A stretch of 64,000 nt of DNA from a bacterium (GTDB taxonomy: Bacteria > Zhuqueibacterota > Zhuqueibacteria > Oceanimicrobiales > Oceanimicrobiaceae), in NCBI GenBank assembly GCA_037446635.1, contig JBBIIG010000014.1, positions 16,294 through 80,293 of the forward strand, written 5' to 3'. Each line of letters opens with the position of its first letter. Position 1 is the first letter of the stretch. This document shows, in pieces, positions 233-15,425 of the stretch. The notes under the pieces were generated by a model. It saw only the letters and a program-made list of their open reading frames with translations, made no database searches and was not told the origin of the DNA. The position numbers and the translations under genes are program-made.

Positions 233-259
233 CTTTGGAAATTTAGAGGAGAAAAGACG

Positions 260-1246
260 ATGACACTCAAAGTAATCTTCTTGACGGGTTTCATTATGGT
301 GTTGGCTTCCGCGCTCTACGCACAGTCAAAAGATTTGCCAGCGGAGTACAAACAGATTCTGCCGCGCGGACAAATTGCGGCCATCACGCAGCCGCAATTT
401 GTTCCAGCCGACAAAGCCGAAATCGCCGATGACTCGTGGGTGCTGGGCGTGGTCATCGACGGTCAGGCACGGGCGTACAGCTTGAATCTGTTGAACAGCC
501 ATGAAGTGGTGAACGACCAAATCGGAGAGCAGGCTTTTGCCGCGGTGTGGTGACCGCTGGCTAATACCGGCGTCGTGTACGACCGCAAATATCAAGATAA
601 AACCATCACGTTTGAAGCTTCGGGCGGGCTGCTAAACAGCGCGTTGGTCATGCAGGATCGCGAGACCGATAGTTACTGGCCGATTATGCAGGGCGAGGCC
701 ATCGCCGGCGAAATGAAGGGGACGAAGTTAAAAGAAATGCCGGTCGCTGAAAAAGTCCAGTGGAAGGATTGGGTCAAAAAGCACCCGAACACATTGGTGC
801 TCTCGGTGAACGGCCGCGAAGACGGCTTCAATCCCTACAAAACATATTTTGAATCGAAAGAAGGCTTTCGCGGGACGGCGGCAAAGGATCGGCGTTTGGC
901 AACTAAGGAGCCGATCTTCGCTTTTCATTATCAAGGAAAAAGTTACGCGGTACCTTATAAGAATTTTGAGGGCGGCAAAACCTTCGATTTGAATGGTGTG
1001 AAACTCTTTCTCTATCGTCCGCCAAAATCCGAAATTTTCTACTCCACCGCGGCCTTTGCGGCTGCGGGTGATGGGTTTAAGATCGAAAACGGAAAGTGGT
1101 ACCACGTGGATTCGGGCTGCCAGTTTAATCCGAATTCGGGTTCATTTGAAAAGGGACCGGGAGCGTGCCCGGAGAAATTTCATGGGTTTGATACCTTTTG
1201 GTACAATTGGAGTTTGTCCAATCCGGATACCCAACTTTTACGGTAA
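260..1246 (+). CDS. DUF3179 domain protein with a single in-frame TGA (551-553): candidate selenoprotein, or a nonsense-mutated gene
   Basis: ORFs 260-553 and 575-1246 share one frame and are separated only by the TGA. GAGGAG RBS before ATG 260, followed by a signal peptide. Read-through gives FAAVW-[TGA]-PLANTGVVYDR...DRETDSYWPIMQGEAIAG, matching the DUF3179 core (Y/W)CPLCNT...D.ET.S.W as I recall it. Confidence 0.7.
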
Positions 1247-1354: not shown

Positions 1355-1978
1355 ATGAAAGCATTCAGGACTTTGGTCGTATTCGCTCTGGCAACGGTTG
1401 TAGCTTTTGCTCTGGTCAATCTTTCAGCGCAGGAAACCAAGCATCAGCCCAAACCGCTCACCGAAGAGCAAAAAATGATGATGAAAAACATGGCCATGAA
1501 AAACATGGATAAGTTCATGGCCAGCAAAGACGCCATGATGCAGCTACCTCAGCATCTGAAAAAAACCCAGGACGAATCTATTAAGCTGGGGGAAGAATTA
1601 TTTAATTCGAAGACCGCGCTCAGCACCAATGGCCAGGCTTGCGCCAGTTGTCACCCCGGCGGCGGCACCACCGGCGGCGAAGCCGAGACGCCTATGGCCA
1701 GCGAGGTGACGGGCAAACCGTATAAACTGCCCATCCCGACTCTCATTGGCTCGGCGGCCACGTTTCCGAAATACAAAATTCCTAATGATGCGGTTATTAC
1801 CGTGGGCGATATGGCCAACAACTGCATCATGATGTTTATGGCTGCGCAGCCGCTTGACCCCAAAAGCAAAGAATTTAAGGCGTTGTCTGCTTACGTGACC
1901 TCCTTGAGCAACGAGGACAAAGTGTCGGTGGGAGAAGTGCCAGAGATGATGAAAAAAATGATGGGCGAAAAGAAGTAG
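1355..1978 (+). CDS. Monohaem c-type cytochrome, Met-rich (SoxA/TsdA-like domain)
   Basis: GGGAGG RBS, signal peptide and one CASCH haem motif. Met-rich tracts MMMKNMAMKNMDKFMASKDAMMQ and PEMMKKMMGEKK. The segment NNCIMMFMAAQPL...ALSAYVTSLS resembles SoxA/TsdA-type domains (recollection). Confidence 0.85.
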   Translation: MKAFRTLVVFALATVVAFALVNLSAQETKHQPKPLTEEQKMMMKNMAMKNMDKFMASKDAMMQLPQHLKKTQDESIKLGEELFNSKTALSTNGQACASCHPGGGTTGGEAETPMASEVTGKPYKLPIPTLIGSAATFPKYKIPNDAVITVGDMANNCIMMFMAAQPLDPKSKEFKALSAYVTSLSNEDKVSVGEVPEMMKKMMGEKK

Positions 1979-1996
1979 CTTTTCCATAACTGTGAT

Positions 1997-2029
1997 AACC
2001 CTGACGGGGTTCGCAACCCTGTCAGGGTT
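1997..2029. repeat. Family-E double palindrome, probable terminator of the monohaem cytochrome gene
   Basis: AACCCTGACGGGGTTCGCAACCCTGTCAGGGTT, 19 nt after the stop at 1978. Confidence 0.8.
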
Positions 2030-2058
2030 AAAACCATTGCACAAACTTTAAATTAGTC

Positions 2059-3072
2059 ATGAAGATTGTCAATATCTGTTTACTATTTGTGGTAGTAAGT
2101 TTGTCTATTGTAACCGCGCAAGATGGTGAAGATGCTGCGCGCTGGAAGAACACGCCGCAGGAGGCTTTCTTAAACAGCGAAATTGTTCAAACCTATCAAT
2201 GCACCAGTTGCCACACCATCGCCGAGCGCGGGGGTACCGTCGGGCCGATCCTGAATCAAGTGGGCAATCGCCGAACCGAAGAGTGGCTGCGCCGCTGGCT
2301 GGCCGACCCGCAGCAGGTTAAGCCCGGAACCAAGATGCCCAAGTTTGATTTCACGCCCGAGCAATTGGATGCGGTGGTCGGCTATTTGACCAACATGAAA
2401 AAAACGCTCCGCACCGATGCCATTCTCGCGCAAAACAAATCTTTAATCGAAACAGGCGAGATGCTGTTTGAGGATTACGATTGCCTGGCCTGCCATCGCG
2501 TGGGCTCCGACGGCAGATTTATCGGGCCGGACTTAACCTGGGTTGGGTTGCGAAAGACCGCGGCCTGGGAAAAAACCTGGCTGGCCGATCCCCCCGGATT
2601 TAAGCCCGATACCTTCATGCCTAATTTTCATATCCCGCAAAAGGGAATAGAAGCGCTGGCGGAGTATCTGCATAACCAGCAAGGACAGAAAAATGCCGAT
2701 TCGCAGGAGTGGGAATTTCGCACCAACTTCTTTCTGGGAAACAGCGATCGCGAACGCGGCGAATTGGTATTCAAGCGCTTTGCGTGTTGGGCGTGCCACG
2801 GTGAGAGCGGCAGCGGCGGCATCAAAAATCCCAACATGGCGCCCGACGAAATGATGCCGCCGCTGAAAGAAGCCGCGGTGAAATATACCGAAGCCGAGCT
2901 TTTGGCGCGGCTGAAAACGAAAACCGCGCCCCGGTCGCTGGATGGCAATAAACCAGCTCCGCCATTTTTCTGTCCGGACTATGGCAATTATATGGAAACT
3001 TCCGAATTCAGCGACCTTTACGCTTATTTGAAATCATTCGCGCCCAAGAAACTCAAGTGGCGGTTTAATTAA
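2059..3072 (+). CDS. Trihaem c-type cytochrome
   Basis: Signal peptide. Three CxxCH motifs (CTSCH, CLACH, CWACH), each inside a ~100 aa class-I cytochrome c-like unit. Confidence 0.9.
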   Translation: MKIVNICLLFVVVSLSIVTAQDGEDAARWKNTPQEAFLNSEIVQTYQCTSCHTIAERGGTVGPILNQVGNRRTEEWLRRWLADPQQVKPGTKMPKFDFTPEQLDAVVGYLTNMKKTLRTDAILAQNKSLIETGEMLFEDYDCLACHRVGSDGRFIGPDLTWVGLRKTAAWEKTWLADPPGFKPDTFMPNFHIPQKGIEALAEYLHNQQGQKNADSQEWEFRTNFFLGNSDRERGELVFKRFACWACHGESGSGGIKNPNMAPDEMMPPLKEAAVKYTEAELLARLKTKTAPRSLDGNKPAPPFFCPDYGNYMETSEFSDLYAYLKSFAPKKLKWRFN

Positions 3073-3128
3073 GTAAGCGGCATTATTCACAGACGGCAAA
3101 AGGTGAGGACGACATCTACATTGAAGTT

Positions 3129-3172
3129 TATTAATCCAAATGGGAGTAATGGATTATTGGATCGTTGGATCG
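3129..3172. repeat. Family-G units (tattaatccaaatgggagtaatggattattggatcgttggatcg)
   Basis: Same TGGAGTAATGGATTA vocabulary as the other family-G sites. Followed by two hairpins (GCCCGCC...GGCGGGC 3194-3221; CTCAAAGC-GGA-GCTTTGAG 3223-3241). Confidence 0.65.
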
Positions 3173-3280
3173 TAACGCAAACCTCAGGTTTGCCCGCCTG
3201 CCTAAGGCCTCTGGCGGGCAGCTCAAAGCGGAGCTTTGAGTTACATATATAAAATTATCCAAGCTAAAAGGAGCAGAATC

Positions 3281-4012
3281 GTGTCAGTCAGGAAAGTTTT
3301 TTCGATAGCTTTGCTAGCGGTAGTTGCGCTCATCTATTTGGCCAATCATCGTACCTCCGAGGCCAGTTTAAACGGCGGCGCCGTCACCGGCGTGGTGCGA
3401 TTTCCTGGGGAGTATCCGGATCGCGAAAAGATCATGATCACCAAAGACCAGCAGGTTTGCGGCGCGTTTCAGTACTCGGAGATTTTTGTGGTGGCGGAAG
3501 AAAACCACGGGTTGAAAAACGTCGTGATTACGCTGGTAAATGTCAAAGGTGGGCAAGCGCCGGCCGCGGTAACGGCCACCATCGATCAGAAAGGGTGCCG
3601 CTATATGCCCCACGTGCAGGCCGTGCCGGTCGGCAGCAATTTGGAAATTCTGAATAGCGATGGCATCTTGCATAACATTCATGCCTATTACAATGGACTG
3701 GATCCTAAAAATACCGTCTTTAATAAAGCCCAACCTAAGTTTCTCAAAAAAATCACTCATACGCTGGATAAGGCCGGGATGTACTACTTCAAGTGCGATG
3801 TGCACAGTCACATGAGCGCGTATGTGGCGGTGATGGATCACCCGTATTATGCGGTGAGCGATGACTACGGTAAATTTACGATCGATAACGTGCCTCCCGG
3901 TTCCTATAAAATTCAAGCCTGGCATGAGGCTCTCGGCGTTTTAGAGAAGAACGTTACCGTCGCGGCTGGCAAAACCACTGATGTAAATTTTGATATTTTG
4001 CCAAATGAGTAA
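3281..4012 (+). CDS. Cupredoxin (type-1 copper) protein with a C-terminal carboxypeptidase-regulatory-like domain
   Basis: The ORF spans 3236-4012. I prefer GTG 3281 as the start (AAAGGAG RBS upstream, then a TM/signal segment). Cu-ligand pattern LHNIHA ... C-DV-H-SH-M has amicyanin-type spacing. The tail GKFTIDNVPPGSYKIQAWHE is CarboxypepD_reg-like. Confidence 0.8.
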   Translation: MSVRKVFSIALLAVVALIYLANHRTSEASLNGGAVTGVVRFPGEYPDREKIMITKDQQVCGAFQYSEIFVVAEENHGLKNVVITLVNVKGGQAPAAVTATIDQKGCRYMPHVQAVPVGSNLEILNSDGILHNIHAYYNGLDPKNTVFNKAQPKFLKKITHTLDKAGMYYFKCDVHSHMSAYVAVMDHPYYAVSDDYGKFTIDNVPPGSYKIQAWHEALGVLEKNVTVAAGKTTDVNFDILPNE

Positions 4013-4033: not shown

Positions 4034-4521
4034 ATGAAAAAGCTGTTCTTCTATTTTTTAGCCATTTCTAGTTTATTGTTAGTCTCGTGCAATAGTGACC
4101 AACCGTTGGGCAGCAATGACGGGGCAAATCCGAGTAAGTCGGGTTTCGGGGTCTCCGGACTTTTGTTTGAGAACAACCTGGTGATGTGGGATCGCGAGAA
4201 CCAAGGCAGCCGCAGCGAATTATTTCCACAAATGTATTTCACCCGCGCCGACGCCGCCGACTTTCCCACCTGGGACACATTTCCTTCCAACCAGATGGTT
4301 TCCGGCGGTCCGCCACGTGATGGCATACCTGCGCTGACCAATCCCAGAATCGTATCCTCAACTTCATAAGTAACGCGAATCCATTTCAGATGACTGATAA
4401 CGAGACCAACAGCGTTTGGAACATCAAAGGCGAGGCGATTTCCGGTGCACTCTCCGGCGTGAAGCTGACACAGATTCCCGCATACAATGTCAAATCTCAA
4501 TATCGTCGTTCCGATTGCTGA
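4034..4521 (+). pseudogene. Second DUF3179 gene, internally deleted and truncated
   Basis: The N-terminal lipoprotein part ends ...GGPPRDGIPALTNP then hits a stop at 4369. A different frame (4387-4521) carries QMTDNETNSVWNIKGEAISGALSGVKLTQIPAYN, the D.ET.S.W...G..G..L block of DUF3179. The central ~130 aa, including the CPLC region, is missing. The 3' end overlaps the convergent gene 4497-4907. Confidence 0.7.
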
Positions 4522-4907
4522 ATGGGGAGGTCGTTGGCGCTCATGTCTCTTCGCCTCATGAGACCCTCCTCATCGAACTCCCAGTGCTCGTTGCCGTGCG
4601 TACGATACCATTGACCGGTATCGGCATCGCGCCATTCGTATTCAAAGCGCACGGAAATGCGGTTATCTGTGTAAGCCCAGAGTTCCTTCATGAGGCGGTA
4701 ATCCAATTCTTTCGCCCACTTTCGTTTCAAAAACTCTTTAATCGCTTCTCTCCCGGTGAAAAATTCAGTGCGGTTTCGCCATTGGGAATCTTCCGTATAA
4801 GCGAGCACAACCCGTTCGGGGTCGCGGGTATTCCAGGCGTCTTCAGCAGCCTTTACTTTCGCCCGTGCGGTCTCTGCAGTGAATGGAGGTTTTATCGGTT
4901 GCTTCAT
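4497..4907 (-). CDS. DUF1348 / NTF2-like family protein
   Basis: Full-length 136 aa [30 protein letters not shown]...[22 protein letters not shown] is typical of DUF1348. Confidence 0.85.
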
Positions 4908-13667: not shown

Positions 13668-14663
13668 TTGAACAAAATAACGCTTTTGCTTTTCATTAGC
13701 CTCGCCGGTGCCGCCGGTCTTCTTTCCTGCACAAAATCCCCCGCACATTCCAACGATTTGACGAGAAGAATTCAGTTCTCGTATGCCTTCACCGTGAAAA
13801 ACATCCCGCCAGATGCCAAGCGCGTTGACATCTGGGCGCCCGTTCCGCAATCGGATGCGTGGCAAAGCATTTCGAACCTCGAAGTTAGGTGCCAAGCTCC
13901 GTACTCGTTCGAGACCGAGCCGGAATATGGCAACTCGATTCTTCGGGTATCCGCGAATGGCAGCGTTCCCGACAGCCTTTCGGTGGTGATGAATTTTTCG
14001 GTGACGAGGACGGGCTACCACCTTTTGAAAGGCGAGGATGAATCTGTGGGGGCGGTTTCCGAAAAAATCCGCCAGCGTTTTCTCGCTCCGGATCGCTTGA
14101 TTCCCATCGACGGCAAAATCGCGGAGGAAGCAAAAAAAGTCGTGCGCGAGGACATGCCGCCGCTCGAAAAAGCCCGCGCCATTTATGATCACGTCGCCCG
14201 CACGCTCAAGTATGACAAAAGCGGCGCCGGCTGGGGCCTCGGGGACGCGCTCTACGCTTGTGATGTCCGCGCCGGCAATTGTACCGATTTCCATTCGCTG
14301 TTTATCGGCATGGCGCGCGCCAGCGGCATCCCCGCGCGTTTTGTGATTGGATTTCCGCTGCCGGAAGATGCGGCCGTAGGCGAGATTCCCGGCTATCATT
14401 GCTGGGCGGAATTTTATATCGATGGCAGGGGATGGCTGCCGGTGGATGCTTCGGAAGCTAGCAAACATCCGGAAAAATGGCATGATCTCTTCGGCGGTCT
14501 CGATCCTCACCGTGTCCAGTTCACAGTTGGCCGCGACATTCAAATCCCGTCTTTAGCTCAGTCTGAGCCCCTCAATTATCTCATTTATCCCTATGTGCTG
14601 ATCGATGGCCAGCCACATGAGAAGGTAGAGCGGCAGTTCCGGTTTTCGGAGTTGACGAATTGA
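13668..14663 (+). CDS. Transglutaminase-like cysteine peptidase domain lipoprotein
   Basis: Lipobox LLSC. Core GNCTDFHSLFIGMARASGIPARFVIGF...GYHCWAEFYIDGRGWLPVDASE carries the Cys-His-Asp triad pattern. Confidence 0.85.
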   Translation: MNKITLLLFISLAGAAGLLSCTKSPAHSNDLTRRIQFSYAFTVKNIPPDAKRVDIWAPVPQSDAWQSISNLEVRCQAPYSFETEPEYGNSILRVSANGSVPDSLSVVMNFSVTRTGYHLLKGEDESVGAVSEKIRQRFLAPDRLIPIDGKIAEEAKKVVREDMPPLEKARAIYDHVARTLKYDKSGAGWGLGDALYACDVRAGNCTDFHSLFIGMARASGIPARFVIGFPLPEDAAVGEIPGYHCWAEFYIDGRGWLPVDASEASKHPEKWHDLFGGLDPHRVQFTVGRDIQIPSLAQSEPLNYLIYPYVLIDGQPHEKVERQFRFSELTN

Positions 14664-14675
14664 ACGCGGAGTGAA

Positions 14676-15425
14676 TTGTTGACATCAAAAAAAATCACCC
14701 TGACGGCGCTCCGAAAAGCGCTGCGCCAGGTTGCGGAAAAAGAGCGGGTGCCGGTGCTCATGCGCTTTTTCAAAACCGGAAAAGGAGAATACGGCTACGG
14801 CGATGTTTTTTTAGGCGTCACGGTGCCGAACAGCCGCAAGGTCGCCAAGCAATTCGCTGCCCTTTCATTTCCCGATCTCGAGACACTGCTGCACTCGAAA
14901 TTCCACGAGGAGCGGCTTGTGGCTTTGCTGATTTTGGTTAAAAAATTTGCTCGTGCGGATGAGTCAACGAAGAAGCAGATATACCAGTTCTATCTCGCAG
15001 AGACAAAATGGATAAACAATTGGGATTTAGTCGATCTTTCTGCCGAATACATCATCGGGGAATATTTGCTTTCACATCCGGCGGAAAATGGGGGCATACT
15101 CGCTGAGCTCGCCGTTTCGCCCAATCTTTGGGAGCGGCGCATTGCGGTGCTTTCGACCTTCGCTTTCATCAAAGCCGGCCGGGCAGAAGAGACGATGCGC
15201 ATCGCGGAGATGTTGCTCTCTGATAAGCATGATCTCATTCACAAAGCCGTTGGCTGGATGCTGCGCGAAGTGGGCAAGCGTGTTTCGAAAGAAGAAGAAA
15301 AGAAGTTTCTCGATGCTCATGCGCACCGCATGCCGCGCACCATGCTGCGCTACGCCATCGAGCATTTCCCAGAGTCTGTGCGCAGAAAGTACCTGTCCAT
15401 GAAAGCGGCCAGAGCTTCCAACTAA
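14676..15425 (+). CDS. DNA alkylation repair protein (AlkC/AlkD-like HEAT repeat)
   Basis: MRFFKTGKGEYGYGDVFLGVTVP...HEERLVALLILV...NNWDLVDLSA...HDLIHKAVGWMLREVGKR. Confidence 0.85.
   Translation: MLTSKKITLTALRKALRQVAEKERVPVLMRFFKTGKGEYGYGDVFLGVTVPNSRKVAKQFAALSFPDLETLLHSKFHEERLVALLILVKKFARADESTKKQIYQFYLAETKWINNWDLVDLSAEYIIGEYLLSHPAENGGILAELAVSPNLWERRIAVLSTFAFIKAGRAEETMRIAEMLLSDKHDLIHKAVGWMLREVGKRVSKEEEKKFLDAHAHRMPRTMLRYAIEHFPESVRRKYLSMKAARASN

Follow-up and report, generated by a model that had tools for sequence, protein, structure and literature searches.

The DUF3179 family is listed among the prokaryotic selenoprotein families with a selenocysteine (Sec) motif of the form UxxC/T (PMC9312934, PMC13188914), and some of its members carry the NCBI name "DUF3179 domain-containing (seleno)protein", so that a selenoprotein of this kind is already known. 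In bacteria the selenocysteine insertion sequence (SECIS) is a stem-loop located directly after the UGA codon (PMC12013277), for which a conserved guanosine in the apical loop serves as a criterion (PMC1976440). In the Escherichia coli fdhF message the upper stem-loop spans nucleotides (nt) 15–31 and its loop contains G23 and U24 (PMC8659212). Here a DUF3179 gene divided by an in-frame TGA was analysed in a 64-kb stretch of bacterial DNA (contig JBBIIG010000014.1), referred to as the window. Judged by comparison with related genes, the TGA at 551–553 is very probably a genuine Sec codon and positions 260–1246 a single gene for an exported DUF3179-family selenoprotein, because the same TGA, followed by the same RNA hairpin, is retained in approximately 140 relatives.

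The reading frame around the TGA was examined using the sequence and the list of open reading frames (ORFs). Both agreed with the first-pass annotation, an earlier reading of the window, that a 97-residue ORF with an ATG start (260–553) and a 223-residue ORF with a GTG start (575–1246) lie in one frame and are divided solely by the TGA. No frameshift occurs between them, and the read-through translation contains no further stop before the terminal TAA. The read-through junction is ...GEQAFAAVW-[TGA]-PLANTGVVYDRKYQ..., with the core FAAVW-[TGA]-PLANTGVVYDR. When the stop was translated as Cys, the 328-residue product matched the PF11376 (DUF3179) profile over positions 2–292 of 292 with an E-value of 4.7e-55 and a score of 187.5 bits, compared to a cut-off of 27 bits, which places it in the family over the whole domain. 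The domain crosses the TGA, so neither half is a complete protein, and the product aligned along its whole length with Cys-type homologues of 320–345 residues. The N-terminal segment MTLKVIFLTGFIMVLASALYAQ, inspected by eye, looks like a signal peptide, as it combines a basic residue with a hydrophobic core and closes with an A-x-A-like sequence, and the N-termini of the orthologues are equivalent. TGA is the normal stop of 15 of the 46 long ORFs in the window and is therefore not globally reassigned.

The protein search revealed two classes of relatives, one of full-length proteins of 320–345 residues with 45–55% identity and one of shorter proteins of approximately 200–235 residues with 56–70% identity. 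The closer relatives cover only the C-terminal 60–70% of the query and are thus truncated at the same place as the window gene. In the homologues of 45–55% identity the TGA aligned exactly with the Cys of VW-C-PLAN, and among 44 full-length homologues this column held Cys in 39 and Ser in the other 5, in keeping with the first-pass proposal that the TGA falls on the conserved DUF3179 Cys. Position +3 was Ala, rarely Ser or Gly, throughout the subfamily in both Sec-type and Cys-type proteins. The Ala in place of a second motif Cys had earlier been counted as evidence against Sec, an objection that falls away, since in the aligned sequences Ala at +3 is the subfamily norm (C/U-P-L-A) and no mark of decay. 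The window gene resembles the DUF3179 selenoproteins in its full-length PF11376 match, in having Sec as the first residue of an x-P-L-x motif where non-Sec homologues have Cys, and in the presence of a bacterial-type SECIS directly after the UGA.

The codon at this column was read in genomes and in metagenomes. The genome scan used one genome per GTDB species and gave 80 loci, 79 of them assessable; in these the codon was taken from the position eight codons before the matched C-terminal portion. It was TGA at 76 of these 79 loci. Each locus is from a different GTDB species, and the labels on their records (KSB1, Calditrichota, Acidobacteriota, Gammaproteobacteria, Planctomycetota and Deferribacteres) cover no fewer than six phyla or candidate divisions. 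The context was ...ARAYSLNLLNxHEVVND......AAVW-TGA-PLAN(T/A)(A/G)VVY..., with both flanks conserved in one frame. In the metagenomes, scanned with the Cys-type alignment as seed, TGA was found at 65 loci, TGC or TGT at 13 and no recognisable motif at 2, thus TGA at 65 of 78. TGA was therefore dominant over TGC and TGT in the orthologue comparison that had been proposed as a check, and the Sec form far outnumbers the Cys form in the sampled U-P-L-A subfamily. The approximately 140 TGA-keeping sequences span 42–81% protein identity and show purifying selection on both sides of the TGA in the same frame. A stop kept at one position in so many sequences, between flanks under purifying selection, is not a nonsense mutation or a sequencing error, and from these alignments TGA appears to be the ancestral and dominant state of the codon. 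One exception, locus L034 (5947–6040), has TGG instead of TGA and a fully intact downstream hairpin, which may reflect a recent change or an error in polishing. Locus L080 (5947–6040) has a Ser codon and no hairpin, and in locus L061 (5757–5850) the Sec region is deleted while the SECIS bases are kept.

The RNA after the TGA was compared by counting columns from the U of the UGA as column 1, so that the window position is 550 plus the column; the structure was proposed by eye and its pairs were then counted in the alignment. The family hairpin starts 13 nt after the UGA and consists of a 7-bp stem, columns 17–23 with 29–35, closed by a pentaloop at columns 24–28. The loop was N-G-U-N-U in all 128 unique Sec-type sequences (CGUGU 119, GGUCU 5, AGUAU 2, AGUGU 1, AGUUU 1). 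The 9-mer GTCGTGTAC (columns 22–30, codons Val-Val-Tyr) was exact in 114 of these 128 and in only 2 of 13 Cys-type genes, and at least 4 of 5 stem pairs were formed in only 3 of those 13. The entropy at third codon positions fell to 0.2–0.44 bits at columns 24–33 compared to 1.0–1.9 bits in the flanks, so that synonymous sites are frozen here. Stem columns 17–21 and 31–35 were 87.6% paired, compared to 15–42% when the partner was slid by 1–3 columns, and their covariation score was reached by 0 of 500 shuffles. Adding the near-invariant pairs 22–30 and 23–29 gave a 7-bp stem that was 91.1% paired, with slid controls at most 50%. Covariation was counted at pair 21–31 (CG 55, UA 15, AU 1), pair 18–34 (GC 49, UA 7) and pair 20–32 (CG 41, GC 6). 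Column 21, a synonymous site, tracks column 31, the first base of a Gly or Ser codon (2x2 table 25/1/2/100, Fisher p 3.6e-23), a link that protein-level constraint does not explain. The commonest variant adopts the family hairpin as its minimum-energy fold (-12.4 kcal/mol); from the 66-nt alignment, RNAalifold with default settings returned only a weak 4-bp helix. Together with the TGA counts in genomes and metagenomes, the covarying hairpin and the frozen synonymous sites bear out the earlier proposal of a Sec codon.

When the family hairpin was compared with the fdhF SECIS, the SelB-binding hairpin of E. coli, both were seen to follow the UGA at a short, constant spacing and to carry an unpaired G-U in a small apical loop. 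The family stem-loop spans nt 17–35 with G25 and U26, compared to nt 15–31 with G23 and U24 in fdhF, placing it approximately 2 nt farther from the UGA. It differs from fdhF in its sequence, in having no conserved equivalent of the bulged U, in its N-G-U-N-U loop consensus and in matching no Rfam model.

Several observations weigh against a Sec codon in the window gene. The U-P-L-A motif has Ala at +3 where the DUF3179 reviews give Cys or Thr (UxxC/T); this is a subfamily difference and no argument against Sec. The covariation counts carry no correction for phylogeny. Rfam gave no match around the TGA site at E-values up to 10 and none at the gathering score anywhere in the window. The hairpin of the window itself is a weak variant, with 5 of 7 pairs in the family register; with A582 bulged it becomes a 6-bp stem of 568–573 with 579–585 around the loop at 574–578, at -4.9 kcal/mol. 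Single-sequence folding was no better than that of shuffled sequences (z -0.5 for 563–590 and -0.97 for 551–600). No selA, selB, selD or tRNA-Sec was found within the 64-kb window, where a six-frame search revealed neither a translational-GTPase G1 motif nor one of SelD type and where no tRNA was found; the absence of selA, selB, selC and selD from the window had already been recorded in the first-pass annotation.

The stem of the window hairpin belongs to a minority class, CCGGC...GACCG, found in 7 unique sequences including the window and in several lineages. The first-pass annotation had placed a hairpin at 570–586 (6 bp, bulged C583, loop UGUA), which at -5.9 kcal/mol is the minimum-energy fold of 563–590 and marginally more stable than the bulged form in the family register. 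This register was rejected as the conserved element, as it showed no covariation in 74 orthologues and was matched by shuffles. A hairpin is present in the zone that had been indicated, in the conserved register 567–585 with the CGUGU loop at 574–578. The support for the SECIS is comparative, not thermodynamic.

The TGA could instead be a nonsense change from TGC, or belong to a decaying pseudogene, for instance one left after a selenoprotein-making lineage had lost its Sec machinery. The change takes a single step, the machinery is absent from the window, the broken remains of another DUF3179 gene lie 3 kb from this one and the window hairpin is the weaker variant. A new mutation is not needed, however, where TGA is apparently ancestral and dominant in approximately 140 orthologues, and both halves of the gene are intact, without frameshift or extra stop, and score as a complete domain. 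The SECIS loop is also intact, and the stem variant of the window recurs in six other unique sequences from different lineages, leaving decay a very unlikely explanation. Similarly improbable is the reading of the UGA as Cys or Trp, through near-cognate suppression or through SelB with Cys-tRNA(Sec), to give a selenium-free protein. The conserved covarying hairpin specific to TGA-type genes is a signature of SelB-dependent decoding and not of leaky termination, and TGA acts as an ordinary stop in the window; this reading draws on the TGG of L034 beside an otherwise intact SECIS and on the existence of Cys and Ser forms of the protein. The source of the DNA is probably a metagenome-assembled genome (MAG), which would favour a sequencing or assembly error at a codon that is truly TGC or TGT, but such an error would need to recur independently in approximately 140 assemblies, and the Sec-specific downstream RNA motif, which most Cys-type genes do not have, is present in the window, making an error exceedingly improbable. 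The notion of two genes, a 97-residue exported peptide and a 223-residue cytoplasmic protein starting at GTG 575, follows what gene callers produce (P0001 and the KSB1 entries) and is scarcely credible, as the Pfam domain and the predicted fold cross the junction, the Cys-type homologues are single chains, the GTG belongs to the invariant SECIS loop and the interval between TGA and GTG encodes the conserved PLANT(A/G)V in frame.

The public entry P0001 is 100% identical to the read-through product and covers only its C-terminal 68%. The KSB1 orthologues are annotated in the same way, for example MCH6559264.1, as C-terminal fragments of approximately 223 residues that begin at a GTG inside the SECIS loop. 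The start at GTG 575 is spurious and results from ending the reading frame at the UGA. The features of the gene and its proposed Sec codon are collected in Table 1.

Table 1. Positions of the features of the DUF3179 gene in the window.
Feature	Position	Strand	Basis or remark
Shine-Dalgarno-like AGGAG	247..251	+	8 nt before ATG 260; read from sequence
Complete DUF3179 selenoprotein gene (proposed)	260..1246	+	328 codons, with UGA 551-553 as Sec (residue 98); stop TAA 1244-1246
Predicted signal peptide MTLKVIFLTGFIMVLASALYAQ	260..325	+	Judged by eye; implies export
In-frame TGA, proposed selenocysteine codon	551..553	+	Homologue alignment, orthologue codon counts
SECIS-like hairpin, pentaloop 574-578 (CGUGU; G575 U576)	567..585	+	Comparative evidence
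223-residue ORF, annotated publicly as a gene (P0001)	575..1246	+	GTG start within SECIS loop

The protein fold was examined using an AlphaFold model of a Cys-type homologue of 55% identity, which is confident, with a pLDDT (predicted local distance difference test) of 91.5, and mostly beta. In this model the Cys lies at the end of a strand leading into the PLAN turn. Sequence searches of the PDB revealed no related solved structure, Foldseek against the PDB gave nothing significant and NCBIfam gave no family match. When compared with Rieske [2Fe-2S] proteins, which are defined by CxH...CxxH ligands, the family was found to have a single conserved Cys/Sec column and one invariant His, with no CxH or CxxH box. 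The link to the Rieske proteins is at most a possible resemblance of fold and not membership. Only one Cys/Sec column was conserved among 121 sequences. Cys287 (1118–1120, SGC-QFN) and Cys303 (1166–1168, GA-C-PE) were considered as a resolving pair for the Sec and rejected, as they were present in 27 and 26 of 77 Sec-type orthologues, about one third, and in 4 of 44 Cys-type proteins; they are probably a disulphide of the exported protein that is restricted to one clade, not a partner that the Sec has throughout the family. As a working inference, the protein may be exported, with a Rieske-like scaffold bearing one Sec that is redox-active or binds metal or chalcogen.

Directly downstream on the forward strand, positions 1355–4012 encode a SoxA/TsdA-like cytochrome c, a multi-haem cytochrome c and a cupredoxin-like protein with a CarboxypepD_reg domain, all exported redox proteins. 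This neighbourhood was rejected as a clue to function, as it is not conserved beside the orthologues in 80 other genomes. A gene for an ECF (extracytoplasmic function)-type sigma factor was found within a few kb of the orthologue at 18 of the 80 loci and a putative anti-sigma factor at 9 of the 80, both labelled by eye from example sequences of the cluster. No other neighbour recurred in the 80 loci, and the window has no equivalent of the ECF sigma neighbour. A second DUF3179 copy (4034–4521, forward strand) is a degenerate remnant with a lipoprotein-type signal, MKKLFFYFLAISSLLLVSC. Its motif order is scrambled, with profile positions 81–111 followed by the N-terminal GGPxxDGIP, a stop and then DNETNSVWNIKGEAISG..KLTQIP; it lacks the CPLC/UPLA segment, and a minus-strand DUF1348 gene (4497–4907) overlaps the 3' end of the remnant. 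The first-pass annotation had rightly described this copy as broken and had counted it against Sec, a question to which it is irrelevant.

The window was also scanned for other ORF pairs in one frame split by a TGA, which gave noise only. The pair 13668–14663 and 14676–15425 on the forward strand, in one frame with a TGA and 12 nt between, was considered as a second selenoprotein and rejected, as its two genes are unrelated: one encodes a transglutaminase-like protein, the other a DNA alkylation repair enzyme. Ten further ORFs of the window matched only unrelated Pfam families, and the remaining ORFs were read by eye only.

If the TGA is decoded as Sec in the source organism, SelB carrying Sec-tRNA(Sec) would be held at the UGA by the mRNA hairpin, the pentaloop of which would present G575 and U576. 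SelB would then deliver selenocysteine and translation would run on to the TAA, giving a 328-residue pre-protein that the predicted N-terminal signal peptide would direct across the inner membrane. The mature protein would contain a single Sec in W-U-P-L-A-N, where a beta strand ends, in a fold that is rich in beta structure and includes a putative Rieske-like subdomain. We infer that the most likely role of this Sec is in redox chemistry or in the binding of metal or chalcogen. A more tentative suggestion, which we consider possible and favour less than its contrary, is that the U-P-L-A subfamily forms a distinct, mainly Sec-containing class of exported single-Sec proteins built in part on a cluster-less Rieske-like fold, found under at least six phylum-level labels with a near-invariant SECIS pentaloop, and that it catalyses a periplasmic reaction not yet described, one that depends on selenium and involves redox chemistry or the handling of metals or chalcogens. 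Horizontal spread of the gene could lie behind the near identity of the SECIS across phyla.

The window gene is a mis-annotated member of a known selenoprotein family, and general knowledge of selenoproteins is unchanged by it. The public record gives a 223-residue fragment for this gene, and does likewise for dozens of its orthologues from MAGs of KSB1, Calditrichota and other groups, where the true product would be a 328-residue exported selenoprotein, and many database entries in the U-P-L-A subfamily would likewise be truncated selenoproteins. The family SECIS consensus, a 7-bp stem with an N-G-U-N-U loop located 13 nt after the UGA, may be used to find and annotate further members of the subfamily. 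A Sec codon in this gene would imply that the source organism has the Sec-decoding trait.
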